A stretch of 64,000 nt of DNA. Origin: Microthyrium microscopicum (taxonomy: Eukaryota). Below are positions 5,248 through 64,000 of this stretch, piece by piece. Each line of letters starts with the position of its first letter. The first letter of the stretch is position 1. Both the position numbers and the translations under genes were made by a program. The DNA lies in contig MU004230.1 of NCBI GenBank assembly GCA_010405405.1, forward strand, positions 2,824,627 to 2,888,626, in the 5' to 3' direction. Below the pieces are notes generated by a model. It did no database searches and was not told the origin of the DNA. It saw only the letters and a program-made list of their open reading frames with translations.

Positions 5248-6425
5248 ATGGTCTCCGGCAGCCTTTCAAAGGCAGCTGTCCTCCTCGCTGCCATCTCAGG
5301 AGTCACCGCCCAAGGAGGATGTACAGTGACCTCTTACAGCGCACTAAAAGGTGCCATCGCAAGCTGTACATCAATCACCATCGGGGATCTCGAAGTCCCT
5401 CGGAACGAAGCACTTGACCTCTCCCTCAAGTCAGGCACAACCGTAAGATCCCGTTACACCTTCTTCCACATTCTATTATACTGTCTCTTTTCTAACATAC
5501 AGACCAGGTAACCTTCACCGGCAAAGTAAACTTCGCCCCAACCCCTAAACCCGGCCGCACAAAACAACTCGTCACAATAACCGGCTCCAACATCAAAATC
5601 CGCGGCACAACCGGGCACGTAATCAATGGTAACGGGCAAGCCTACTGGGACGGCGTAGGCGGAAACTCTGGAAAAACCATCGACAAGCCAAAATTCTTCC
5701 GCCTAAAACTTTCAAATAGCGAAATCTCCAACTTGCACGTTAAGAATGTGCCTGTGCACGTTTTTAGTATCTCCGGATGCTCGCACCTTACTTTGGATGG
5801 GATAAGGATTGATAACTCAGCGGGTGATGCGAAAACTAGTGGTGGCAAGAGTCTAGGCCACAATACGGACGCATTCGATGTGGGTGAGAGTAATGATATT
5901 ACGATATCGAATGCGTGGGTACATAATCAGGATGATTGTTTGGCGATCAACAGTGGCACGAATATCAAGTTCTTGAATGGGACTTGTATTGGTGGTCATG
6001 GCTTGTCCATCGGCTCTGTAGGAGGGCGAAACAATAATGTTGTTAAAGGTGTTCAGATCCGCAACAGCAAGATCTCCAAGTCGGAAAATGGTGTGCGCAT
6101 CAAGACGAAGGCTGGTGAAGGCAAAGGTTCTGTCTCAAATGTTGAGTATAGCAACATTGTGCTTGATGGGATCACGAAGCGTGGTATTGTTATTCAGCAG
6201 GACTATGAGAATGGTGGACCAACGGGCAAGCCTGGGCCGGAGATTCATATTAGTGATTTGACACTGAGTGGGATTACGGGCAGGGTGGATGGCAAGGCGA
6301 AGGCGATTTATGTGCTTTGTGCGAGTGGTGGGTGCTCGAATTGGAAATGGAGTGGGATTAATATCTCAGGGGGTGGTAGTAGTTGTTCTGGGGCGCCAGC
6401 TGGAGCGTCAGCGTTTTGTAAGTAG
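5248..6425 (+). CDS. Secreted endopolygalacturonase, GH28
   Basis: Signal peptide MVSGSLSKAAVLLAAISGVTA. Intron 5443-5507. Contains YWDGVGGNSG..KPKFF and all four GH28 catalytic motifs: HNTD, QDD, GHG, RIK. Confidence 0.95.
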
Positions 6426-6592
6426 AGATGGTTTGAAGTAATGAATCAGTCAATTTAGCTGGGGAATACCAGTCTATGTACAAATGCTCGCTGTCCGATG
6501 CTGGATATCTATGCTGAAAAGTCAAAACCGTGAAAATCAAGGGAACCCATCCTCTTCGAACGTCCCATACCATCTGCCATATCATTCAGAGA

Positions 6593-7990
6593 CTACACAC
6601 CCAAGGCGACCAGTCTAGCCTTGATATCCGCAACACCAGGCTTGCGATTTCGATCCACTACTACGCCTGTCACACTGCCAAACGTCACGACGCCGATATG
6701 ACCTGGCGCCACCTCGGTCTGCAATAACTTGATCACTCGCTCTATCTCCTCGCGAGCTAGGGGACTGCGCATCGATGCTTGTACGTTGCGCACTAACATG
6801 CTCATTGGAAAGCTTGCGCGTGCCGAACCTCCTTTTGCTACGGCTAACATCTGGAGTACCTGAAGAACCTCCTCTGCACGCTGTAGAGCCGCCATTCGTT
6901 CGCGCTGTTCCTTGGTAGGTGCCGGAGCGGCACTGGCGGCTGCGGCTTCTTTGGCGTGGATGCGGGCGAGTAGTGACGAGGAGCGATCAGATGGGTTTGC
7001 TGGTGGTTCCGGGGTGGTGTTCTCCTTGTCCTTGCTCACTGGGGCAACGGTAGAAGTATGAGCAGCTTTTGTCCGCTTGAAGGGTCGGGTTGGTGTATGG
7101 TCGGAGAGATTGATGTTCTTGAATGGAGTGAGGACGTCTTCGAGACGGCGCTGCCCTTTTGCGCGGAGCGGTCCAAGTTTGGCTAATGTGGAGGAGGGAA
7201 CGAGCGGTTCGGGAGAGATGGAGGCGGTGAAGCATGAAGATGGGATTTGCTTCGAGTGCGATTCCCAAAGGCTCGCCAGGTTGGCATTGAAGGTTGCAAT
7301 GGTGTCTGCTTCGTTGAAGGTACGTTGTGCTGGCCCGCGACCTTTGCGCTGCCGGGCAACGCGCTCGAGGCAGACTTTGCCTTCGCCATAGTCTTTAAGA
7401 AGGAAGCGAGTGGCCGTTGTGGCACTTTTACTGGTTGATGTCGAATGAATGATAGCCACGATTAGACGAATGTCTTCAATGGTGACTTTGCGCTTGCCCC
7501 ACAGTTTGGTGATTGAGGGTGTGAGCATTCGAAGATCGACGGTGTTGGAGTTTCCATTGTGAGCATAATGAAGCGAAAGAGCAGATAGGAATGCACAATT
7601 TAGACGTTTCAAGTCTTCTAGTTCATTGGTGAAGCCATTGGAGCGGGTCGGGCTGCTTGGTGGAGAGGAGACAGCAATATCAATTTCTGGAGAGGCATGG
7701 CGCTTGCGCTTCAAGTTGGTGGCAGACGACAAGTTGGAGGCAGAGACTGAGAGGTTGAGATTTGCAATACTATGCTTGATGGCTTTCGTAGGAGTATCAG
7801 GGGGGGTAATAACCACAACTCTACGCTTCTTGATGGAAGTCGTGACACTCAGACTGGACGGTCGTTCATCATCAGCTGTAGTCGGGTCGTGTTTACGTTT
7901 CTTGGACCCGAGATCAGAATCGGTACCGGGCTTTGAAACGCTACTAAAGTTGAGCGTAGCTCGCTGGACCATAGTTCTTGGACGAGGCAT
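6593..7990 (-). CDS. DNA replication licensing factor Cdt1-like protein
   Basis: ATG at 7990 (MPRPRT). Basic N-terminus with CDK sites (TPPDTPTK), a middle domain (AFLSALSLHYAHNG..DLRMLTPSITKLWGKRKVTIEDI) and a C-terminal winged-helix-like domain. An MCB box lies upstream. Confidence 0.68.
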   Translation of the reverse strand: MPRPRTMVQRATLNFSSVSKPGTDSDLGSKKRKHDPTTADDERPSSLSVTTSIKKRRVVVITPPDTPTKAIKHSIANLNLSVSASNLSSATNLKRKRHASPEIDIAVSSPPSSPTRSNGFTNELEDLKRLNCAFLSALSLHYAHNGNSNTVDLRMLTPSITKLWGKRKVTIEDIRLIVAIIHSTSTSKSATTATRFLLKDYGEGKVCLERVARQRKGRGPAQRTFNEADTIATFNANLASLWESHSKQIPSSCFTASISPEPLVPSSTLAKLGPLRAKGQRRLEDVLTPFKNINLSDHTPTRPFKRTKAAHTSTVAPVSKDKENTTPEPPANPSDRSSSLLARIHAKEAAAASAAPAPTKEQRERMAALQRAEEVLQVLQMLAVAKGGSARASFPMSMLVRNVQASMRSPLAREEIERVIKLLQTEVAPGHIGVVTFGSVTGVVVDRNRKPGVADIKARLVALGV

Positions 7991-8163
7991 TTTTGGATAA
8001 GATAAGCTCAAGAAAAGATGTGATAAGTATGGAGGGTTGAGCACTGGAAATGTCGAAGGTGAAGAAAAGAAAGATTGTTGTGTGAGATTTTGGTGTGTAG
8101 GGGAGTTGAGAATTGACCCAATGATAAAGGGAGGCTGGCCGCGACTTCCCCAAATGCTCGTCA

Positions 8164-8257
8164 ACGCGTAGGGCAGGTGCAGCGTGTCGCGAACGTGTCG
8201 CGCTAGTGATATGATTGGCTGGAAGAGACTCGTGGTACTGGCCGAGGTTCAACCAAT
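8164..8257. promoter_or_regulatory. MCB (ACGCGT) element with CGCG-type motifs and CCAAT boxes upstream of the Cdt1-like gene
   Basis: ACGCGT at 8164-8169, TCGCGA/GTCGCG at 8186-8202, ATTGG at about 8214 and CCAAT at about 8253. These lie 175-265 bp upstream of the ATG, consistent with G1/S (MBF) regulation. Confidence 0.55.
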
Positions 8258-8612
8258 AGGCGCATGGCTTGGGCCGAAAGCTTGGACCAAGCAAAATGCA
8301 CTTACCCTTCCTTTTCAAGTAAGACACCTCCACCAACTCCACCAACTCCACCAACACCGACAACAGCTCTCATCTGTTTTAGAAATTGAAGTTTGTTCCA
8401 AGAAATCAATATGTTGTATGTACTGCATAATAATGTACAGGCTACTCTTTCCGAGCGGCCATGTAAGGGTATCCTAAAGCAATCCCAACCATTCTAAACG
8501 CCGTGCTGAAAATCAGGTCCCAACATGTCCAGGAAGGACCAAGCAATCTGGTCTATTCTCATCCAATCCTTTTTCTATCATACATGTCCCATCTCAACTC
8601 ATAATATTACAT

Positions 8613-10101
8613 TCAAAATCTATCCCTAAACGGGTTATTCGGGTCGTTATCATGGCCCACCACTGGATTATTGTTCTCATACAGAGTCGGCATCTGGCTT
8701 GCTCGTTGCGATAGCAGCGGCCGATATCCTGACCGTCGATTTCCTCGCGCACCCGCCGGCCAAGATCCTCTTGGTTGCGGCACAGGCGATCCTTGTGGTG
8801 ACCCGTTTTGATATTGGTAGCCATTCTGGTAGCCGTTGTGGTGGTCTTGGTCCCAGGAGTCTGGCGTGCTTGATCGATAAGGTGGGCTGTCTGCTCCATA
8901 TGCCCTTGGAGGACTCACTGCGGCGGCTCCGAATGTTGTGAGCGGCTCGTATCGAGTATGCTGTTGCATTCCTGTGTCGAACATGGACACTTCAGGGCCG
9001 TAAATTGAGCTTGCTGGCGGAGGTGTGACTGGTGGATCGTAGAGGTATGCTTCTTGTGGATAGATGCTTGGCGGTTTCCTGTTTCGCCGCCGTAGGCAGA
9101 GGAAAATGAGCGCTAGGAACGCGATGGTGACTACAGCTGCTGATGTGGTGATTCCTGCGATTGCGCCGGTGCTCAGTGTGGATTTCCGTTGGGTAGACAT
9201 GTCTCCTGGTGTAGCGGTTGCACTTATTACCGGAACGTTTTTTAGCGCGGAGGTTGAACTTGAACTTGAAGTCGAACTCGACGAGGATGAAGAAGTATGT
9301 GAGGTTGTTGTTGATTGTGAGGCGCTTGAGGGCGATATACTCATTGATACCGACGAAGAGCTGGGAGTTGCGGAGACGAAGGTAATCGATGGCAGAGACA
9401 TTAATGATTGTGAGCTGACTACAGATTGCGAGGCACTGATAGTTGATTGCGGTTGTTGGCTGCTGGTTACTTGCGCGGACGAGCCCGCTGTTGCTAGAGA
9501 TGATTGACTTTGCACGGACGATCCAGCCGTTGCTAAGGATGATTGACTTTGGAAAAGCCAGCTCAAGCCGCCTGATGAAGATTGACCGCCAATCGTGGAC
9601 TGGGTAGATTGGCTCATGACCCCCGAAATGGTTTGTTTCGCCGTCGTTTGGAGTGTTTGACTGGTTGTCCCTTGCGAAGTCTGGGTGAATGTTGGTTGCG
9701 CTGAAGTCTGAGTTGGTGTTTGGGAGGAGGGTATGATCGGACCAGGTGGAACAAATAACAGACTCGATGATGGTGTAGCCGTTGAAATAGATGGGACAGC
9801 AAAATAACTCGAGGCTAAAGAGGCCAGAACAGACCCAAGTGAGGGTGATATATCGCTAGCGACACTTATTGGCAATGAGGCCAGGTTGAGACTCTCACTC
9901 ATAGTAGTACCGCTTGGATTGGTCACTCGCGGTATTATAGCAGGCGTTGGTGTGGGAATCCTTGTTAAGGATGTTTGCGCGGAGAGAGGGAAGGGGAGGA
10001 GTCTAGTCGCTTTAAACGATTGGAGCTGTCGTCCTGTTTACCAAAAGTTAGCATCGGTGTTTTGTTTGGACATACTTCAAACTCGACTCACCTTCAATCA
10101 T
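8613..10101 (-). CDS. Ser/Thr-rich single-pass membrane protein (Mid2/Wsc/mucin-like sensor architecture)
   Basis: Micro-exon ATG ATT GAA G (10101-10092) and intron 10091-10034 (GTGAGT..GCTAAC..CAG) join in frame. Long S/T/Q-rich region, TM helix (GAIAGITTSAAVVTIAFLALIFLCL) followed by RRRNRK, and a P/Y-rich tail ending NNPFRDRF. Confidence 0.8.
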
Positions 10102-46505: not shown

Positions 46506-47470
46506 ATGGGCAACCACGCACTTGATGTGAACCGTAAGTTATTCCCACCCTTGAAGACCATGTATCTGCCAGTATCCAAAACATCACTAACATCAAATAG
46601 CACCATTCGGTGCAGACATCCACATCACCACCCGAGGCTCCGACTGGCTCTGGACAGTTTTCTCCCTCTTCACCCTCGCCACCATCCTCTTCCTAGCACA
46701 CAGTTTCGTCAAACTCCCCAGCGAGCGCCTCTTCCACTACATCGACATATCCATCCTCCTCCTCGCCAGCATCACCTACTTCACCTACGCCAGCGATCTA
46801 GGCTACGTTGGCATAGGCGTAGAATTCTTCCGCAGCAACCACAAAGTGCGCGGCGCAACTCGACAGATCTTCTACGTTCATCACATCTATTGGGTCTTGA
46901 GTACACCGTTGCTGCTACTCAACGTGCTGCTTACTGCCGCTTTACCGTGGACTCATGTCTTTTTTGTGATCCTGGTTTCACTTGTGGCGACGGTGTCGTT
47001 TTTGGTGGGCGCGTTGATTTCTAGCACGTATAAGTGGGGATTCTTTGTGTTTGGGTTGGCTGCGTTGGGGTATATTGCGTATACGCTTGTCATTCCGGGA
47101 AGGAAACATGCTGCGTTTTTGGGTACGGATGTTGCGAGGGCGTATAATGTAGCTGCATTGCTGCTTATATTCGCTGGATTCTTGTACCCTATTGCTTGGG
47201 GAGTCAGGTAAGTAAAATCGGCAGATCTACGACAGGGACGGGATACTAACATACTATAGTGAGGGCGGTAATGTTATCTCGCCAGATTCAGAAGCCGTAT
47301 TCTACGGTATCTTGGATCTGTTGGTCGCCTTTGGAGTCTGTGGATGGACTATTTGGGCTCACCACGATATCGACCCCTCAAGACTCAACCTTCGCTTGCG
47401 CAGTTACGACGAAGACATCCCAGGCGCCAAGGGACATGTTGAGAAACCAAGACCAGCTGCTAATGTCTAG
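46506..47470 (+). CDS. Opsin-related protein (Hsp30/Yro2/FDD123 family) lacking the retinal-binding Lys
   Basis: MGNHALDVN/PP..HITTRGSDWLWTVF, YFTYASDLG, RQIFYVHHIYWVLSTPLLL and YPIAWGV/SEGGNVISPDSEAVFYGILDLLVAF. Introns 46534-46600 and 47208-47258. Confidence 0.88.
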
Positions 47471-47992
47471 TATGACGACAGCGGTGCGGTGGAAGTAATA
47501 GTAATCACTGGCAAAGAGAGATACGGTTGTGAGATCTGTCGTTTTTGCAATTATAGTACGATACCCGTTGCGTTTCCAGCATGAAATGATATAATTTATT
47601 GAACTTTTTGGAATTTAGTTCCCGAAGGAGCTTTGTTTTGACATAACATAGCCAAACGCTTGAAAATCAATTCTATATAATTTACATATTTGACCACAGT
47701 GCGAAAAGGTCGGTAAAAAGTGAGGAGGTGAAGGTACTAACATTGACACCAGGGAGCTCATTCATGGCTTGTTGGACAGGAATCCCGATAGCGAAATCTC
47801 AGCCTCTAGTTCTTGGGATCGTTGCCAGCCCATCTTCAACATCAACGAAACTGATGCCCATACATATCTGGAAACCACAGAACTAGATCTCACCGCCTTG
47901 ATGGGAGCCATCCAGTGCGATGTATGTGACTTGATGTAGAAAGAACTTGAACGCACGACTGCGGGGCTATCGAAACCGACAGTCGAATCATC

Positions 47993-50271
47993 ATGTCTGG
48001 AGTCTCTTATCGCACTCTCGACGAAGGTGCAAAAGAAGTCCGATTGCTCATAATCGAGGACAAAGTTGAGGATGATAATGCCACAGTATCACCTCTGTTG
48101 CGATGCCACCTGGTCAAAACGTCTTTACACCTCTACAGCTCGGAAGGAGCAATTGTTCCAGGAGGCCCACCAGAAGGTCACTCTTATGCCTCAGAAGAAA
48201 TAATATCCAGGGGCTGGACTGATACGCCTTTTCAAGCCCTCTCATACGTCTGGGGTGATCCAACTCCTGTTAGCGAAATTGAGATCGATGGTCGATTTTG
48301 CAAAATATCTCAAAACTTATCGCAAGCTTTGCTTTCCATATATGACAACACGGCCTTCAGGGTTATCTGGGCTGATGCAGTGAGCATCAACCAACAAGAC
48401 AATGAAGAAAAATCGTGGCAAGTACAGCAAATGGTGCATATATATTCTCGTGCTGAGAGTGTCCTCTCATGGCTTGGAGTTGGAGACACCAACAGCACTT
48501 TAGCCATGCAACAACTGAACAACCTTGGGCGCGATCTTACAATCAGCAAATGGAAGTTCACTGGCACTGAAAGCATGAAAAACAAGATTTCAGAGGAACA
48601 CAACCAAGTTGGTGTGAAGTATACAGAAGATTCATCAACCTGGAGAGCTCTCATAACACTTACTGAGCGAAGCTAATGGTCTCGACTTTGGGTCTTTCAA
48701 GAATTTACCACGGCTTGAAGTATCGACTTGTTGTGTGGAAACAGCCATATTCAGGCTTGTCGAGATTCACTCATCTTCCTAGTTTGGTGGGTCTACGAAA
48801 CTGAAGCATATGCCGGAGGCCTACTTCGATTAGATCAGAGCTTTATCTTTATGATGACCTACTCAGCACAATATCACCACGCCCGAGAAGCTGGATATGA
48901 CCCCGCTACAGAATTTGGCCAACTCTTGAAAGCGATGGCCATGTTTGAAGTAACAGATCCAAGAGACGTGATATTTGGGAGTCTTGGTCTTGCTTCTAAT
49001 AAAGACTGGCTCGGACTCCAACCAGACTATTCCAAAACTCTGCGAGAGGTTCTGTTGGAGACTGCCCGTGCTTTAGTCACTATGGAATCGACGGGGTGGA
49101 ACAGTTACGCAGAACGAGAAAATAGAAATAATGGCATACCCTCTTGGGTACCAGTTTGGTCAAGCAATGCTAGACGATTTCATGCCCATTCTTATAATGC
49201 TTGTGGGGATGCTACTAGGAACGAGGAAACTAACGACGAGGATGAAGATGATGCAGCTTGGGAGGATATGGTCAGTGACGACGAGGACCTTATTGTTCGG
49301 GAAGATGAAGCTAACGACGAGGACGACACCATAAAGCAGGGAAATCGGACCCCGACCCCCTCTGAAGAAAAAGCTCAAGAGACCATCACATTGGACGGTT
49401 ATTTGGTTGATGTAATCACGGACCTCCTTCCCACTTGCGCGAGAGAACTCTTCAGAACCAGTAAAAGAGTCGGCACGAGAGTTGGAACTGAGGATGGAGA
49501 AGAGTCAACAATTTCGATCATCGAAAGAGCAGAAAACATCATGAAGCAAAAGAGATCTCCTTTTGCGCAAAAGTCTGATGCATTAGCTCGAACACTAGTG
49601 GTAGACATTTTATCAACACCATTTGATCAACGCATTGATCCAGATGTTGACGCCAACCAGTTGTTGCTCAAAATCAAACAAGCTCAAATACAATCTGTGG
49701 TCGAGGATTTCTTCCTTCTCGAAAGCTTCGACGATTGGACCACATTAGAAACAGTACATTGACAACATGGCATTACATATTTTACATGGTGCAAGGCTGT
49801 TCTTCACAAAAAATGGTAAGATTTCCCCATATCAAACCAGGCGACTTAATGACATCAAGTAAACCTAAAAAACATCTTATGTCTCATGGCACTCAACGGT
49901 TTCCATAAGGTGTGTTCCTAATCGAGAGCTATGGATTGCATCTGGATGCGACGGATGCTTTACGTACTTATTTACCGCGAAATACCCAATGTTCTGTTCG
50001 AAGCGTGTTGGTTCTGTTCATAGTTTTATACTTACCAGATCCAGGCTATGTAGGCTTATCGCAACAGAAGCACTGTAAGGTTGGGGATGTCATTGTCATC
50101 TTAAAAGGCTCAACTATCCCTCACATTCTACGGAGCTACACCATAAGTTTCAACTCCGAGCAAGATCACACTGAAACATTCGAGTTCATTTGTGAAGCTT
50201 ATGTGCATGGAATCATGGATGGTCAGTTTGTGGCTCAAGATCCACCGCTCCGTTCTTTCACGCTGCAATAA
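47993..50271 (+). pseudogene. HET-domain (HET-6-like) heterokaryon incompatibility gene, disrupted
   Basis: EVRLL, FQALSYVWGD, IWADAVSINQQDNEEKSWQVQQMVHIYSRA, WSRLWVFQE, TDPRDVIFG, PSWVPVW, GDVIVILKG..PHILR and EAYVHGIMDG. In-frame TAA at 48674-48676, TGA at 48716-48718 and a frame change near 49750. Confidence 0.85.
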
Positions 50272-55869: not shown

Positions 55870-58550
55870 TTAAAAGACTGAGGGGAAGCTGCCAGGAATG
55901 TTTTTGCTCTGGCGACGACTGAAGCGCTTTCGTCCTTTTTGGAGGTTGTTTGCGTCTTCCTCTTTGCGTAGTCGTGACGCGCTGCTGGGGATGTTGACGC
56001 CTTCAAGGGTTGAGTCGCTGCCAAAGAAGTTGTTATCTCCACCGTAGCTGCTACCTGCGGGTGACGATATTGAGGAAGACATGTCCATTGCTGAGTCATT
56101 GGAGTAGGATCCGGTTAGAGATTGCTGGGTCAAGTAGAGCTCCCGTGCTCTAAACAGGCAGTCTAACCATTCTTCTGCGGCAATTCGGGTGCCATCTGGC
56201 TCCGGTGGTGGTGTTAGGGGCACTTCAAAAAGGATGTGCTTTTCTCGCTGCACAGAATTAGCAACACGCTTTTCAAGAAGAGGCCGACTAGACTGACTGT
56301 ATCTACACACCACTGGGTCAGTCCTTTCGAATCTTGGAAAGACTTCCAGGTAATGCTTTGCCCAACGAGAGGAATCTCCATCTTCGCCTTCTTCTCGTCA
56401 CCACCGGAGGCAGCTAGCACGATGCGACCACTACTCGTAACCATGACTAGGCGTTGTCTCTTTTTGGTAGTTGGTCCAGACATGAAAAACCTTGAGAACT
56501 TTCTTGGTTGCTCTGGTTGTGAACTGTCGCCGTTTTTGGAATTGGGACTATGAGGTTGCGGGGAAACGGTGACAATGAGGTTGCCAAGTTTAAGAATTCG
56601 CTCATTGGATCGCGTCAGTACAGGAGACCATTCAATATCCAATTGAGAGGGTGCAGGAAGCTCTGTGATTAGTCTCGATGCAAGTGGCCGAGGCGTTGAC
56701 GTGGGATTGAGCATCATTGCAGACGGTACAGAAGTTGGTGCAACTGTTTACATTAGCCTATGCCATTTTGAAGGATAACTGAACTACATACCATTATTGA
56801 GACGAATAGGTGCTGGTGGGGGAGGAACATAAGGCTTCAGTCGTGGAGCTTTTTGTTCCCATAGTTTTGTTCCCCAATTGACTCCATCGAAGAATGGGTG
56901 GTTCTTGACATGGTCAATCGTCAGTCGTTTAGATGGGTCTGGAACAAGGAGTCGTTCAACAAGATCTCGAGCTACGTCAGGAAAGCCAGAAGGAAAAGTG
57001 TAATCCAGTTTTAGAATCTTGTCGAATGTCAGGTATTCCGTAGCTCCCTTGAAAGGTGGTCTGCCGGTCAATAACTGGAAAATAATGCACCCAAACGCCC
57101 ATAGGTCGGTAGGTTTGCCACCCTCCTTAGCAGTAAGCAACTCCGGGCTTACATACTCAGCAGTGCCAACGAATGAAACGGCACGAGCTGACTCTTCCCG
57201 AGGAAATGGATCCGCGCCGTTGTCCATCTTTCGTGGTTTTGGTTCGTCTAGGATTTTGCCTGTACCGAAATCTGTAATCTTCACATGCATCTTCGAGTCC
57301 AGGAGTACGTTCTCAGGCTTCAAGTCGCGATGTAATACACCTCTTGAATGCATGTATTCGACAGCGTCCAAGATTTGAGACCCATAAAATCGCGTACATT
57401 CCTCATCGAATGTACCCATTTTCTTGAGCACTCCTAGAAGTTCACCATTACTAGCCAAGTCCAGAACAAAGTAAAGTGATCGCTCATCTTGAAAAGTAAA
57501 ATAGAGTTTGACTATTCCAGGGTGATTTGTGAGCCGGTTTAATGTATCCTTTTCAATGTTCACGTATTTGACCTTTTTCTCCTTGATGATGTGCTTTTTG
57601 TCGAGGACTTTCACAGCATATTCGCGCAGAGTTGCACGGTCTGTTGCCGCTAGCACAGTGCTGTACGAGCCTTCTCCAAGAGTGCGGCCAAATTCGAAAT
57701 CGTTGACTCCTTTTTTGGTCACTTTTGTAACCACCTGTCCGTTGGCATCCACTTCTCTCCTGACACCAACCGCAGCGCCCTTTTCCTTCCATTCCTCACT
57801 GCTGGCCGGTGGTCCGTTCTCCGCATAGGCTCCGGCGAGGGGAATTGAGGCGCCTGGTGTCGCTGGTAATGATGTTCCGGGCGATATCCGCCGGGAGCTG
57901 CGTCGGGGAGGAGGAAGATTGTTCTGCGTTGATAGGGAATAATCTGCAGTGCCGCGATAGCCTGCGCCGGCTCGGGAAGATGTCCGTTGTGGGGGAGCTA
58001 CAGGCTGTGGTGGTTCATCACCGTATCTGTATGTACTATAATTCGATGCTTGAGAGCCTCCTGATACGTTCGGGTGATTATATATCCCGGACATTGGTCT
58101 TGCTGGTCCAGTCGCATAATTTCGAGGGGCCGCCATACCATGATTAGAGTGGGGGGCGTATGGAAGTTGCTGTTGGGCCTGATGGGCGATGGGCATCGAT
58201 TGGCGATGACTTAGGCGCTGATTATAATCCATCTGCGGCTGAGGGAAGTATGTATTGCTCTCCTGCACGTATGGAAGGCCAGCTGGTGTTACTTGGTTGG
58301 AAGTATTAGGGACGGGGAGGACATCGGCAAGGGTGGAGCCAGACTGGGCCGTAGTCGGTAATTGTGAGCGCGTGATAGTCGCGGTAGATGTACTGGATGA
58401 TGAATGTGATGATTGTGGAGGAATAGATGAGACGGAGTCTGCGATTGAGGGGATTTCGGCGTTCGATGAGGTAGGAGAAGAAGTCACATCGTCTGGATTG
58501 GCTATCCGGAGGCCGCCCAAGGCCTGAGTTAGGCTCAAGTCGTCGTTCAT
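55870..58550 (-). CDS. PDK1-type AGC master kinase (Pkh1/2, Ksg1 ortholog) with C-terminal PH-like domain
   Basis: KKGVNDFEFGRTLGEGSYSTV, YAVKVLDKKHIIKEKKVKYVNIEK, HRDLKPEN, DFGTGK and SFVGTAEYVSPELL. PH-like segment ERILKLGNL..KKRQRLVMVTSSGR. Introns at about 56791-56744 and 56297-56248. Confidence 0.94.
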
Positions 58551-60240
58551 TGTCGAGAAATGCGGCCAAGTTGACAGCAGCCAAACTCTTGGACAGATAT
58601 TCAGGAATTGCTACCACGCTGTAGACTTGTTACGTATGCAGTTGAAGAACAGGAAGGCAGAGAGGTAGAGTCTGGCGTCAAGACCAGCCAAGCGAGAGAA
58701 AGCGGTCGGTCGTGACAACGGAGTCGAGGTCAGACCTGGTCATACCATCGGGCGATTTGGCATCGGAGGGTACCAAGAGATGGAAGCAGCGAGCCGGATT
58801 AACAGGAGATCGTATCAAAATCGGTGAGAGAGACGAGGCAGCGGCAACCGGTGGGTTCTGGCGACTTTGCGGAACAGTTGTAGAGTCGATACTGATCCAA
58901 AAGTCCATCCCGTACAAGGTTGAAGGAGGTAGGTAGTAAATCGATCGTCCCCGGAAGCACGTGAGTCGTAGTTGGTGGAGAGCATGGAGGGGGTGGAAGC
59001 TAGGTCTGTTCCAGTTAGGCTCACCGTACACGCGCATTGCTCCTTTCGCACGCGTGCGCTTGTCTCCCCAACTTCACTCCCTCCATCACTCGCCAGTTGT
59101 TGGAGATGGAAGCTCCATTGTCGATATGAATGGCCAAACCCCCACTGATTCCGCTGTCAGCCAATAGGTTACCTGGAATCATTGCTCCCATGCTTGCTGT
59201 TGTACGGAATACTTCCTATCACTCCTCTTTGAGTGACCATTACGAGACCCAAACATCTTCTAGCTTGTAAGTCGTACCTTGGCATCTGCATGCAATGAAC
59301 GTTCTGCATCATTCCGCATGATCTCGCCCTGTGCATGGTATGTTGAGCTAGGTATCTAGCACATGGTACTCGGCGGTTTGGTACTTTCTGCTTCGATAAT
59401 GCTGCTGGAACAAATGCCGACTATACGGTGTATTGACTGACGGTATTCCCCTGAGCCTCTCCAAGCCTCCCAACTTGTCAGATGATTTGTCTTTGCTCTT
59501 CTTGTTTCCGTTCGCTTCTTCATGAATTCGATGACAGGTTTCTTTGGGCCCGCGGACTTGGCCCATCTTGTATCAGCCTGATGAAAGTTTCGCAGGTAGT
59601 GTGGTGATAAGCCGTATGGGTCAATTCAATTCGCCCTAAAAACACACGTGGGTTGCTTCCCCCTCTTGAGTCGGGCGCCTTCAAGTTCGATCACAGATTC
59701 TTCCTTCTTTTGAGTTGCAATGAACCATATCCTGTAAACCAGCGGCTGTCAGAGCTATTTAACACTTTGTAGATCCCAGTATTGTGGTATTCGGCTGATA
59801 ATTGTAGTTCATCGGATGGGCAGTTGAGGGCTCTCGAGGTATATATCGTTCGCGTGGATGGTCATTGCTCTTGCTAGACTGTTGAGCTTCTTCGTTCTCT
59901 TCTTCTCGCTGCCGTACTTGATGCGAAGTATACCTATGAGCCAATCACAGCATGTTTTCTCCACCATGCTGTGTAACTTACTTGAGGCACTTCAAGCTGT
60001 CCAGATGTAGTGCGCGAAACACTTACGCCCAACATTGAGATTGGCCAATGTATAGCAAGCAAGTTCGTCAACCCCTGTATAGCTCGTGTTCCTGTACAAA
60101 CAAACGATGTATCCCGGTGTGTCCTGGTGTACGCCAATCCGCTGTCGATCCTTGTGTTCTCTTGGAGTGTGTTAAAGTCTCCAAGCTTGCTCTTTCTTCC
60201 ACTCTTCGCCCGGTTGATTCTCCTTTTGAGCAATTCTACC

Positions 60241-62193
60241 ATGGCGTCGCCATCTTCTGAGTCGGTATTTTCTGAGGAGAGCTCGAATTCTCTGTTTGGC
60301 CTCGGTGCCGCGGATTTGTTGAGGAATCGGGTCTATATCCAGGTGCTTGGATCAAAGTACATGTATCCGGCTGCGCGAAAACCTGAATATTTCAACACCG
60401 AATTTGCAGCCAACTCAAACCAAACTACTGGAGTAGAGTTCGTTCTGAGACCGCCAACCATTACCGATGAGAATGAGTTGAAGACCTTATCAGCCACAGT
60501 ATACCGGCAATGGCTGAAAAAGCTCGAAACTTCGGCTTCAATGTTGGGCTGTCCAGAGATCCAGTTTGACGAGAAATTCAATTGTTTTGTTCTGTTCCTT
60601 CCTGGTCCTGAGGATCTTGTGCCTGACCTGGGCCTGGTTGCCGCATTGGATATCATCGAAAGTATTATTCTGGCTGAATGTGTTGCGAAACATCTCACAG
60701 AAGGAGGAGACGACAGACTTCATCTTGATCCAGATACAGGAGTAAACAAGTACTTTTGCCCACCACGACCAGTACCCGATGAGACAATTCAAAGAAGTTC
60801 TTGTACTTGTTCTGCGCCTTCGAGATGTGGTTTTGTGACTGCATGCAACCTTTTGCAACAAATCTGGCTTGGTGCAATCGATTTCGACGATGCTTGCGAG
60901 GATGTTCGGACGAAAATGAAAAGAGCTTTGAGACTGGAAACGCCGTCTTACGAAGTCATACTTCATCCATCTGGCTCCGATGCCGAGTTGCTGCCACTAG
61001 CTTATGCGCTTTCCAAGGCCAGGGCTATAGGGTGTAGTAATATTGTCAATATCGTTGTCGCCGCGGGAGAAGTAGGCTCGGGAACAGCAGCGGCAGCAGG
61101 AGGTTTGCATTTCAATGAGTATGTGCCAAGTGGAAGACTGGTCAAATCTGGCGAGAGAGTCACTGGGTTTCCAACAAATACTGTGGTTATAGACATTCCA
61201 CCGCGAACATCCACTGGCTGTCTTGTGTTCAATTACGATAACGAGTTAAAGGAGAGGGTCGAAGCTGCCTGCAAAAGCTATTCCAACCCATTTTTTGTGA
61301 TCCACGCAGTCGATGGTTCCAAAACTGGTCTGCGGCTGCCGAGCCAGTCGGTACTGGATGCTCTGCGGCAGCGATTAAAGGAGCGGCTTTTGGTGGTATT
61401 GGATGCTTGTCAAGGCCGGAGCGATGGCCAAGAGCTGGATTGGTATCTGAGTCGGGAGGCAATGGTTCTCGTAACGGCAAGCAAGTTTTTCGGGGCACCT
61501 GGATTCTGCGGTGCCGTGTTAGTACCGCAAGAGATATCTCTGCATCTGGAAACTTACAAACTGGATGTTTCTGGCCTGGGGGATTATATTACAAAGTATG
61601 AGATTGCGCATTCTCTACCCAGGCTCCGCCACAGCCTTCCCGAAGGGCCAAAAAACATTGGACTCCTTCTTCGCTGGGCATGTGGTGTGACTGAGATGGA
61701 ACGGTTTACAGAGATGGGTAGCGCAGCTCGCCATGTCATTAGGCAATGGGTCGAGGTCGTTGAGCGCCAAGTTAAGAAGCGAAACCCCTATCTGGAGTTG
61801 CTCGACAACCAGCAGAGGCAGCCCAAAACAAGGCGCGACGTGACCCGTCTGGGAGGCTACAATTCAGTTATTTCAATCAAAATTCTAGGGCCAGATGGAA
61901 CTCACTACCTTGACACAGCGAAACTACGCCGCATCCACCAGCTGTTGACAATCGACGCCTCCCGCCTCCTCCCTGAGGACACCCCGCCCGATGATATACA
62001 GAAGGTTATAGTACAGTGCTATGTTGGTCAGCCAGTGAATCTTGGAAAATTCGGGGTATTACGGATGGCCATGGGTGCTCCGCTCGCGTGCGATTTGGCA
62101 ATTGATATGGATCGGTTTGAGGTCGTGGTAAGGAAGGATGAACAAGTGCTTGATAAAATGATGGTTCTCGCTAAATATTATGAGAGAATATAA
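60241..62193 (+). CDS. Intronless fold-type-I PLP-dependent enzyme (class V-like motifs), uncharacterised family, with an extra N-terminal domain
   Basis: 650-codon ORF from ATG 60241. Motifs PSGSDAE (phosphate-binding-like), LDACQGR (D-A-x-Q) and VTASKFFGAPGFCGAVLVP (putative Schiff-base Lys at 61483-61485), plus GGDDRL..DPDTGVNKYFCPPRP and GLLLRW. Confidence 0.75.
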   Translation: MASPSSESVFSEESSNSLFGLGAADLLRNRVYIQVLGSKYMYPAARKPEYFNTEFAANSNQTTGVEFVLRPPTITDENELKTLSATVYRQWLKKLETSASMLGCPEIQFDEKFNCFVLFLPGPEDLVPDLGLVAALDIIESIILAECVAKHLTEGGDDRLHLDPDTGVNKYFCPPRPVPDETIQRSSCTCSAPSRCGFVTACNLLQQIWLGAIDFDDACEDVRTKMKRALRLETPSYEVILHPSGSDAELLPLAYALSKARAIGCSNIVNIVVAAGEVGSGTAAAAGGLHFNEYVPSGRLVKSGERVTGFPTNTVVIDIPPRTSTGCLVFNYDNELKERVEAACKSYSNPFFVIHAVDGSKTGLRLPSQSVLDALRQRLKERLLVVLDACQGRSDGQELDWYLSREAMVLVTASKFFGAPGFCGAVLVPQEISLHLETYKLDVSGLGDYITKYEIAHSLPRLRHSLPEGPKNIGLLLRWACGVTEMERFTEMGSAARHVIRQWVEVVERQVKKRNPYLELLDNQQRQPKTRRDVTRLGGYNSVISIKILGPDGTHYLDTAKLRRIHQLLTIDASRLLPEDTPPDDIQKVIVQCYVGQPVNLGKFGVLRMAMGAPLACDLAIDMDRFEVVVRKDEQVLDKMMVLAKYYERI

Positions 62194-62255
62194 ACTTACC
62201 CATTTAAGGCGCCCCCATGGGCCAAGACATTCACATGATGGTGCTGTTTACCAAG

Positions 62256-62546
62256 TCAGTAATTGTCCAGTTCCAATTGCCATGGAAGTTTGCCACGAAG
62301 AGCAGCTGTGAACCTCTTAAGAGGGTAGCGATGTAAATTTAATACCATGGATGCAACCACCAGCTCTGGCTTTTGAATGGCCATGTCCCAAAAGAACTTA
62401 CGCCAATAGGCATCGCGTAACAGGTCCAAATGAACCGCCAAATACAACAAAATCTCCGGGGCGAATACGACAAGAACGAAGACGACGGCCGCCATCCAAA
62501 CTAGTAGGCGGGTTATGGCGCGCATAATGCGCTGGAGGAATGGCAT
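62256..62546 (-). CDS. Small hypothetical membrane protein, 96 aa
   Basis: ATG in aatATG context after a (GCAACA)n leader. One strong hydrophobic segment (LLVWMAAVVFVLVVFAPEILLYLAV). No recognised family. Confidence 0.45.
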   Translation of the reverse strand: MPFLQRIMRAITRLLVWMAAVVFVLVVFAPEILLYLAVHLDLLRDAYWRKFFWDMAIQKPELVVASMVLNLHRYPLKRFTAALRGKLPWQLELDNY

Positions 62547-64000
62547 ATTGCCTTGTTGCTGTTGCTGTTGCTATTGCTGTGATGAGTGATTGTGGTCGAC
62601 AGGTTTGAAGGTCTTGGAGTTGCTCAACAAGTTGATGTTGTGGGAAGACTGGAAGTGTCAATTTCGAATTTGGGGAGCAACACGGGGGTAATGCTGAAAA
62701 TAACAACCGCAAGTGGATGACCGATACACGTTGTTCATGCTTCTCCCCTGAGTAGTTCTTTCTAGGATAATACATATGGTTTCACTCTGAATAGCCTCTC
62801 AATTCCATTACGTTTATATACATTTGCCAACTACGCAATACAGCATGAAGCTTTATTATTCGCGGCACTGATAGCCAGAATCGCCAAGCCTGAGCTTGTC
62901 ATGCTTGTAGCGTCCTAGGTCTTCGAAATCGTCCACAATGGCTCACTGACCAACTCCCAAACACCCTCCTATCTGCTTAGCATAATCACACCCACATTGT
63001 TTAAACATTCCAAAACTCCTCGCGTCCACTATATACAATCGCACAAAGCGCCGGGGATAGTTTTTATTAGTTTTGAGGTTGGTGGTGCGAAGTGACGCGG
63101 CTTGTTGACAACCTGTTGTCGAAACTTGACCAGCCAAAATCGCATCGAAGAATGGATTTTTGGTCTATTTCTTCGAAACAACTTCACGGATACAGTTGAG
63201 CTTCATCTTAATAGCCAGCTCCGCTTCATATTCACGTCGCTGCATGTCGGATAGTCTCACTCTCGTCCCAAGGTATGACATCGCTAGTCTCATTTTCAGC
63301 ACACTGCGTGCTCAAAATCCGCTCAAATTCGCGTTTTGCACCTTCTGCCCTAATAACTGACTTAAATATCAGGCTGAGATAACTCGAAGCTTCATCCACT
63401 CTTCAATCTCCAGGATTGGCCTAACAGCATCTTTCAGCCTCACACAAGCATCCCGATAACCTTCATATTGACCAGTAAGTCTCAATGTCCTGTAGCTCCA
63501 TAACACTCCATGGCTAGCATAGAACGCCACGGTGTTACGTGCCCGAAGAACCGTCTATCTCTTTCAGCGCGTGCTGGCTGGCTTCTACAAGATTCTTACA
63601 TCAACCTTACACTGACGAATAATTTAGTCAAAGCCTCTGAAGTACGTTTTCCCATTACGCTTTTTTCCAACTGCTTTTCATGATGATCAAACATTATTCC
63701 AAAAGAGTCTTCATGCTTAGCGCCTGTTGACGGTGAAAACAACACAAATGCTATTTTCTGAACAGTCAAAGCTCACAGCTGCTGGTATTTCTACTTACAT
63801 GGCGACATGCTAATACGTCTAGGAACAACAATTCTTTCAAATCAAATTGAGATAGAACTCTCTTCCGAATCCAGTTTCGGTTCGCTTTCCTTTCGATCGA
63901 CTCTGACGACCGGCGGCACATCTCCGGACCTGGAATACCACCCCCATCCTCCTCGTCGAATCCTCAATAACAAAAAGTGCAAATAATTCAAGTAGGTACA

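Follow-up and report, generated by a model that had tools for sequence, protein, structure and literature searches.

An expressed gene of Microthyrium microscopicum for a predicted pyridoxal-phosphate enzyme of an uncharacterised family, probably acquired from a red-algal lineage

A 64,000-nucleotide (nt) stretch of the ascomycete Microthyrium microscopicum (assembly GCA_010405405.1, contig MU004230.1, positions 2,824,627 to 2,888,626 of the forward strand; hereafter the window) carries an open reading frame (ORF) of 650 amino acids (aa) at window positions 60241-62193. An initial annotation, made from the letters alone, had taken this ORF for an intronless pyridoxal 5'-phosphate (PLP) enzyme of an unusual family and a candidate for horizontal transfer. 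Taken as a whole, that interpretation has held: the gene is expressed, its product is a predicted PLP enzyme from an uncharacterised, mostly algal and bacterial family, and its patchy presence in fungi goes with a phylogenetic position that appears alien to its host.

Gene model and transcript

In M. microscopicum this ORF is a real coding sequence (CDS), transcribed and contained in a single exon. On the plus strand the frame is open from 59986, with its first ATG at 60241, no in-frame ATG upstream of it within the open frame, and a stop codon ending at 62193; by simple arithmetic, the chance of 650 stop-free codons is about 3e-14. One public sequencing run contains this stretch. It is typed "RNA?" by guess, and we call its contigs RNA-derived because they skip GT..AG stretches in the neighbouring kinase gene: one 6173-nt contig passes over two minus-strand introns at 56248-56297 (50 nt) and 56744-56791 (48 nt), which have GT..AG ends in the minus-strand sense and lie downstream of the Pkh-type kinase ORF. 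From the same run, a 3270-nt contig covers 59456-62725 with no joint and no letter differing from the window, and read depth is 176.8 on the transcript and about 1 beyond 62826. The parts of the transcript, and of the 650-residue product (P0001), are as follows, UTR standing for untranslated region.

59101..59266, plus strand: upstream part of the 5' UTR, reaching back at least to 59101, from RNA-derived contig coverage and a contig joint from 59266 to 59456
59267..59455, plus strand: spliceosomal intron of the 5' UTR, 189 nt, GTAAGT..AG, from the same joint
59456..60240, plus strand: downstream part of the 5' UTR, inside the 3270-nt contig
60241..62193, plus strand: single-exon CDS, 650 aa and stop (P0001), from the ORF, with no joint inside it in the RNA contigs
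60295..60696, plus strand: N-terminal module, residues 19-152, with a predicted fold like the C-terminal small domain of group II PLP decarboxylases
60697..60780, plus strand: family-specific N-terminal segment, residues 153-180 (GGDDRL, GVNKY), with invariant columns in a 72-sequence alignment
60781..62190, plus strand: predicted class-V-like fold-type-I PLP catalytic core, residues 181-650
61402..61404, plus strand: D388 of DACQ, putative partner of the PLP pyridine nitrogen, invariant in 72 of 72 sequences
61483..61485, plus strand: K415 of TASKF, putative Schiff-base lysine, present in at least 90% of the 72 sequences
62194..62725, plus strand: 3' UTR, at least to the end of the RNA-derived contig

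The contrast first drawn between an intron-free ORF and an intron-rich neighbourhood is right for the CDS, which is unspliced among genes with introns, several of them divided over reading frames. It does not extend to the gene, which has the 5' UTR intron seen in the RNA contigs; a second such contig (59237-59485) runs unspliced through the site of this intron.

The protein deposited for the gene (P0002; BT63DRAFT_450031, "hypothetical protein" of Microthyrium microscopicum, 638 aa) is 100% identical to P0001 over residues 1-629 and then diverges, its gene model having a 3' intron that swaps the last 21 residues for 9 others (window 62100-62193). The RNA contig runs unjoined through this region, and the fungal and red-algal homologues end as the unspliced ORF does. 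We therefore prefer the uninterrupted ORF as gene model; the 3' intron of the database entry has no support, and the public annotation of P0002 appears to be wrong at its 3' end.

Fold and family of the predicted enzyme

Every motif quoted in the initial annotation was located in the ORF. The class-V-like PLP signatures lie at residues 243-249 (PSGSDAE), 388-391 (DACQ) and 412-416 (TASKF), and the blocks described as distinctive at 155-160 (GGDDRL), 167-171 (GVNKY), 277-282 (EVGSGT), 285-291 (AAGGLHF), 359-364 (GSKTGL), 474-479 (GLLLRW) and 596-599 (GQPV). Fourteen columns are invariant in the alignment of 72 diverse members (D157, R159, S244, G245, E277, R322, K361, D388, R393, S414, G474, R478, P598 and R608), and K415 is invariant in the close clade and in 12 bacterial members. 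All 14 columns together with K415 are present in P0001 and invariant in an alignment of 23 fungal and red-algal sequences. As signatures for the family as a whole we use GGDDRL, GEVGSGT, GSKTG, DAxQ, SKF, GLLLRW and GQPV.

The class-V-like fold is backed by structure comparison. An AlphaFold2 model built from the 72-sequence alignment (mean predicted local distance difference test, pLDDT, 92; predicted template modelling score, pTM, 0.92) has a large alpha/beta domain and a C-terminal small domain, with residues 153-180, the GGDDRL/GVNKY segment, modelled without regular secondary structure. With the full-length model, every row displayed by Foldseek is a fold-type-I PLP enzyme, and the top rank is held by group II decarboxylases (6eei_B, E = 8.6e-14, TMt 0.54, 15% identity). 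In the structure comparison the closest neighbours are class V enzymes, at 10-13% identity and covering model residues 164/181-650; the structural rows differ by no more than about 2 Z units, too little to tell reaction types apart. In the model, D388 ends strand 383-389 and K415 follows 27 residues later, in the loop after strand 408-412. An Asp at a strand end with a Lys some 25-35 residues further on is the usual arrangement of fold-type-I enzymes, which makes K415 the likely Schiff-base lysine, the roles of both residues being assigned from their positions. Based on these models, the ORF encodes a fold-type-I, class-V-like PLP-dependent enzyme.

None of the libraries consulted holds a family to which the protein could be assigned. 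A Pfam scan of P0001 gave only noise (one match, E = 0.24, 11.5 bits against a cutoff of 27), an NCBIfam scan gave no match, a search of PDB sequences gave nothing significant (best E = 0.19), and a PDB search with the 72-sequence family profile found no chain. The earlier remark that Nfs1- and Agx1-type signatures are missing is consistent with the lack of any Pfam match, Aminotran_5 included. Class V itself (PF00266: NifS/IscS/SufS, C-DES, AGXT, PhnW, PSAT) is structurally akin, but the hidden Markov model (HMM) of PF00266 finds no match in P0001 at E <= 10, in 10 stand-alone relatives at E <= 0.01 or in 22 relatives at E <= 1, and its matches within fusion proteins are confined to their decarboxylase part. 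Compared with class V, the core of the ORF is about 100 residues longer and adds the invariant N-terminal segment (GGDDRL..NKY), the invariant K361 and E277, and several arginines. The residue before the lysine is Ser in the ORF, against His in NifS-type enzymes.

Group II decarboxylases (PF00282: AADC, GAD, DABA decarboxylase) show no sequence-level relation to P0001. Their HMM matches neither P0001 nor 22 relatives, profile comparison by hhalign gives a probability of 0.3% for the family core, and the fungal protein has only a small-domain-like fold without the large catalytic domain of these decarboxylases. The tRNA-dependent enzymes SepCysS and SepSecS (PF05889) are a lead only: their score of 0.85 is under the tool's trust level, with 86-97 of 256 features shared, and the PF05889 HMM has no match in P0001.

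The family is very large, and no curated model library that we used covers it. An exhaustive phmmer search returned 1672 representative clusters (50% identity) at E <= 1e-3, 549 of them at E <= 1e-30, with matches spanning query residues ~145 to 650, and a pattern scan of one genome per prokaryotic species (GTDB) confirmed 521 of 524 candidate stretches as relatives. The best 80 loci of these 521 comprise 64 from Pseudomonadota (55 of them Alphaproteobacteria), 7 from Bacteroidota, 6 from Acidobacteriota and 3 from Armatimonadota, a make-up biased by the query alignment used. Algal homologues are named from red algae (Gracilaria, Agarophyton, Hildenbrandia, Compsopogon, Porphyridium, three from Galdieria, and Pyropia), brown algae (Pylaiella, Ectocarpus, Scytosiphon, Ascophyllum) and the green alga Mantoniella, and Rhodelphis is named as well. 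The likeness to alphaproteobacteria and some algae proposed in the initial annotation is thus borne out.

The named fungi are 13 among the 120 matches listed, no dedicated fungal genome collection having been searched. They are ten Sordariales, Sporothrix eucalyptigena (Ophiostomatales), Niveomyces insectorum (Hypocreales) and Microthyrium (Microthyriales), so that, among these matches, orthologues are found in four orders and are not widespread in Ascomycota. Database names of relatives are only "hypothetical protein" or the generic "PLP-dependent transferase", and in the part of the literature open to our search we found no paper on the family, its locus tags or its operon. The product of the ORF is, very probably, a PLP enzyme of an uncharacterised family, as had been proposed.

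Some further relatives deserve mention. A metagenome scan with the single protein found no relative, and a scan with alignment A3 found 12 loci, the 66%-identical protein P0003 not being among them. The reading frame is uninterrupted in the window gene and in the eukaryotic relatives L081 and L083, unlike L082 (1483-2268, 2326-3465), a metagenome relative of 50% identity that is split over two frames by an intron or a frameshift. Pyropia vietnamensis has two members, P0081 (358 aa, 50% identical to the fungal protein) and the divergent P0082 (730 aa), of which only P0082 was placed in the trees.

The N-terminal region ahead of the family-specific segment, which had been called unexplained, has a recognisable fold. 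Modelled alone, residues 1-160 reached a pLDDT of 77.6, and an exhaustive structural comparison of this model with 48,161 chains gave 50 rows, all of them on the C-terminal part of fold-type-I PLP enzymes and the best of them group II decarboxylases. For residues 19-152, this predicts a fold like that of the small domain at the C-terminus of group II decarboxylases. By sequence, searched for with an HMM of residues 55-152, the module gave 77 match lines, only from fungal, florideophyte-type and Compsopogon proteins, with no match in Galdieria, Porphyridium, green or brown algae, the fusion proteins or the 944 bacterial ORFs examined.

This module may plausibly be a relic, left by an N-terminal decarboxylase that lost its catalytic domain. 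In P0138, a relative fused to such a decarboxylase, the family core aligns from residue 459 and the decarboxylase model match ends close by, at 476. Several results weigh against the relic. Foldseek, which had been suggested for both domains and which succeeded with the full-length model, returned nothing for the module at E <= 1e-3, and profile comparison of the module with 22 decarboxylase sequences gave a non-significant probability of 2.3%, its aligned stretch landing in the decarboxylases' C-terminal domain. Given these two null results, the resemblance is structural only. No decarboxylase remnant was found by Pfam at E <= 1 in 22 longer algal and bacterial forms. Moreover, in the quick tree described below, P0138 and P0163, both fused to an N-terminal decarboxylase, do not group as sisters of the red-algal and fungal clade, which weakens the relic reading further.

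Phylogeny and origin

Our careful maximum-likelihood (ML) tree was built from 62 rows and 609 columns under LG+C20+F+G4 by posterior mean site frequency (PMSF), with six bacterial rows as outgroup; supports are quoted as ultrafast bootstrap (UFboot) and Shimodaira-Hasegawa-like approximate likelihood ratio test (SH-aLRT). Microthyrium pairs with the 66%-identical P0003 (100/100), and this pair is joined by Hildenbrandia, Gracilaria, Agarophyton and florideophyte-type relatives (99/94). Moving outward, the next groups to join are the Sordariomycetes clade (99/95; itself 100/100), Compsopogon with Porphyridium (99/96), Galdieria (99/95) and finally the long-branched Pyropia P0082 (94/84). A quick tree of 99 rows has the same arrangement; it had taken in 10 rows of a non-homologous ~410-aa protein (branch length 3.4), which the careful tree leaves out.

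The red-algal part of the tree roughly matches what we take to be the accepted order of red-algal classes, and the simplest reading is therefore descent within red algae and transfer into Pezizomycotina. The N-terminal module, common to fungi, florideophyte-type sequences and Compsopogon, supports this grouping independently. Identity of the fungal protein is 41-50% with red-algal proteins and ~30-35% with bacterial-type ones.

Six hand-made fixed topologies were compared by the approximately unbiased (AU) test. Placing the fungi as sister to all red algae was rejected (p = 1.5e-64), as was placing them as sister to Galdieria plus Compsopogon/Porphyridium and Florideophyceae (p = 0.006), and a position as sister to Compsopogon/Porphyridium plus Florideophyceae was marginally rejected (p = 0.045). 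A tree with Sordariomycetes as the closer sister of Florideophyceae was not rejected (p = 0.142), nor was one with fungi monophyletic and still next to Florideophyceae (p = 0.139), and the number of transfers is accordingly put at one or two.

These results indicate that a red-algal-type origin by transfer is probable, as judged from sequence comparison. The gene is patchy in the recipient group, nested with support in the donor group, and integrated and expressed in its host. The donor would have been a red-algal lineage close to Florideophyceae and the recipient Pezizomycotina, with the fungal copies domesticated afterwards, as the 5' UTR intron and the host-like base composition suggest. 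The claim that the enzyme was acquired therefore stands, with a donor that appears to be red-algal and not bacterial.

Several points tell against a red-algal transfer or limit its detail. The AU test covered 50 of the 62 rows (P0148, L072, P0166, P0096, P0129, P0127, P0087, P0092, P0133, P0160, L017 and L032 were left out) under the simpler model LG+F+G4, and the result for fungal monophyly bears on how many transfers there were. Many of the close relatives are metagenome or Logan proteins that we assign to florideophytes from their tree position and from N-termini shared with Agarophyton, and Pyropia P0082 sits on a long branch that departs from the species tree. Nor does composition mark the ORF clearly as foreign: it has a GC content of 0.494 and a third-position GC content (GC3) of 0.485, both inside the range of eleven neighbouring coding stretches. 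Its relative synonymous codon usage (RSCU) correlates poorly with that of the pooled neighbours (r = 0.18, against 0.40-0.72 for 10 of the 11 neighbours), but an ordinary neighbour, GH28, is as low at 0.16.

The strongest rival holds that no transfer took place and that the gene, present in early eukaryotes, was inherited vertically and lost from nearly all fungi and other opisthokonts. It could draw on the host-like GC and GC3, on a gene tree that looks vertical within Sordariales, and on the spread of the family over several eukaryotic supergroups, with members from red, green and brown algae, from Rhodelphis and from a chrysophyte. We consider it improbable, since the fungi lie inside the red algae, above Galdieria and Compsopogon/Porphyridium with supports of 99/95-96, the two trees that put them outside were rejected with the smallest p values, the fungal N-terminal module is found elsewhere only in florideophyte-type and Compsopogon sequences, and named fungi are so few among the matches listed. 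Direct acquisition from bacteria such as Alphaproteobacteria, in which the family is abundant and with which the intron-free CDS would fit, is very improbable: the bacterial sequences form a separate and distant clade, identity to them is well below that to red-algal proteins, and the module HMM matched no bacterial ORF examined.

As a separate observation, the copies of Sporothrix eucalyptigena and Niveomyces insectorum pair with each other (100/96), both on short branches, in conflict with the Sordariomycetes species tree; this could possibly be a fungus-to-fungus transfer or a naming issue.

In its chromosomal setting, the ORF stands among ordinary fungal housekeeping genes. A Pkh-type protein kinase, recognised by family match, lies directly upstream on the minus strand, and other window ORFs match topoisomerase I, Mediator Med1, Cdt1, an OBG GTPase, ATP synthase gamma and GPI2, as well as an OPT transporter, HET, a rhodopsin-like protein and a RabGAP. 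Downstream, 62194-64000 holds no ORF longer than 127 aa. The bacteriorhodopsin-like (fungal opsin) and HET-domain ORFs, at 46591-47208 and 47951-48673 on the plus strand, lie ~12-14 kb upstream of the gene. We dismiss the idea of a contaminant in the assembly or of a gene gone silent, to which the patchy taxonomic distribution and the atypical codon usage might lend themselves, as the ORF is contiguous with fungal housekeeping genes, its database protein sits on a 4.5-Mb contig, an end-to-end RNA-derived contig comes from a run that also shows spliced neighbours, the 5' UTR intron is canonical and all family-invariant residues are intact.

Decarboxylase partners and possible chemistry

Fusions and neighbouring genes in relatives offer clues to function. 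A fusion scan of the 20 representatives longer than 880 aa found an Orn/DAP/Arg (fold-type III) decarboxylase domain in 15, at the C-terminus except in P0186, where it is N-terminal, and an N-terminal group II decarboxylase domain in 3; of the remaining two, one has an N-terminal asparagine synthase domain and one no other domain. The fused fold-type-III domains are nearest to LysA and the group II domains nearest to DABA decarboxylase, in both cases below the cutoff. One of the fusions comes from the chrysophyte Epipyxis. L091, a metagenome locus, has its Orn/DAP/Arg decarboxylase as a separate gene that overlaps the family gene's end.

The gene neighbourhoods of bacterial homologues, named at the outset as a place to look, were examined in the 80 best loci. 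Of these, 48 have, along with the family gene, a gene for a ~410-aa protein (at a distance of no more than 306 nt in 38), and 26 have a group II decarboxylase gene. In one locus, L004, the ~410-aa protein is fused to the family member (5786-8683, 965 aa). It has only weak ATP-grasp hints in Pfam and NCBIfam, and some of its homologues are named "glutathione synthase/RimK-type ligase-like ATP-grasp enzyme" by JGI. What recurs in these associations, we infer, is a link to an alpha-decarboxylase, of one fold or the other; enzymes that form amides are rarer.

In some bacteria the genes for the ~410-aa protein and the group II decarboxylase form a conserved trio with the family gene (for example L024 7791-12380 and L021 7896-12380). 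In Bradyrhizobium-like genomes, FlgK/FlgL-like genes immediately precede this trio, and TPR proteins with a weak match to glycosyltransferase-9 are encoded nearby. Many alphaproteobacterial loci have FlgK/FlgL-like genes upstream, and L086-L088 have polysaccharide-export genes; we treat both kinds of neighbour as lineage-specific. No informative partner stands beside the eukaryotic relatives L081, L082 and L083, whose neighbours carry ankyrin, PigL_N or malectin domains or none.

Since relatives are repeatedly fused or adjacent to two unrelated decarboxylase folds and to an ATP-grasp-like gene, we propose a decarboxylase-coupled role. The enzyme would be dimeric, with K415 carrying the cofactor, D388 holding the pyridine nitrogen and the S244-G245 turn holding the phosphate, and an anionic substrate would be bound by the invariant basic cluster R159, R322, K361, R393, R478 and R608. 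The family may make an amino acid that the decarboxylase consumes or convert an amine that the decarboxylase produces, and the N-terminal module could, speculatively and from its fold match, be the remnant of a lost decarboxylase fusion. By analogy with PhnW, which acts on an anionic amine and serves us as a model, transamination seems the leading candidate chemistry, tentative as this choice is. We hold with the same reserve that the enzyme may be a transaminase with a decarboxylase partner, acting on an anionic amino acid or amine. We lean, somewhat beyond even confidence, towards the explanation as a whole, namely an uncharacterised PLP enzyme of red-algal descent that may act as a decarboxylase-coupled aminotransferase.

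The coupling to a decarboxylase has its own weaknesses. The decarboxylase-linked bacterial and protist relatives share ~30-35% identity with the fungal protein, no catalytic decarboxylase is fused to the fungal and red-algal members, and many of the 80 best loci are from closely related Alphaproteobacteria, so that their counts are not independent. Within the 64-kb window we found no decarboxylase gene, and no ATP-grasp enzyme or secondary-metabolite core gene either.

Other chemistries have to be weighed against transamination. A C-S or beta/gamma-lyase or a desulfurase-like enzyme (cysteine/selenocysteine lyase, sulfinate desulfinase, sulfoxide lyase) is the nearest competitor, and in our estimate an unlikely one; the tied structural rows, class V families among them, do not separate it from a transaminase. 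Less likely still is that the enzyme is itself a decarboxylase, or a racemase or epimerase feeding D-specific fold-type-III decarboxylases. The first rank of group II decarboxylases with the full-length model and the decarboxylase-type small domain of the N-terminal module would fit a decarboxylase, and the LysA-like nature of the fused domains would fit a racemase, LysA acting on a D-centre. Neither fits well with the absence of a Pyridoxal_deC HMM match or with the very low profile-comparison probability between the family and group II decarboxylases; there would be little use for a second decarboxylase in a protein already fused to one, and the bacterial partner belongs to group II, whose enzymes are L-specific.

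A bolder version of our preferred explanation, which we think doubtful, would have the transfer deliver a founding-type member of a family that arose from a decarboxylase fusion and retained nothing but the small domain of the decarboxylase. The chemistry could then be new to PLP families, for example transamination or cleavage of an anionic (sulfonate, phosphonate or dicarboxylate) amine or amino acid, in a pathway common to algae, soil Alphaproteobacteria and a few fungi.

In summary, the gene belongs to a family that spans algae, protists, bacteria and a few fungi and that has no relative with a solved structure detectable by sequence. To our knowledge, well-supported transfers from red algae to filamentous fungi are unusual, and a red-algal transfer into filamentous fungi is worth proper documentation. 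The fungal copies, having a compact, intron-free CDS that is expressed, should be easy to produce and assay. That family members have repeatedly been fused to decarboxylases of two unrelated kinds suggests that amine or amino-acid metabolism contains a step not yet described.

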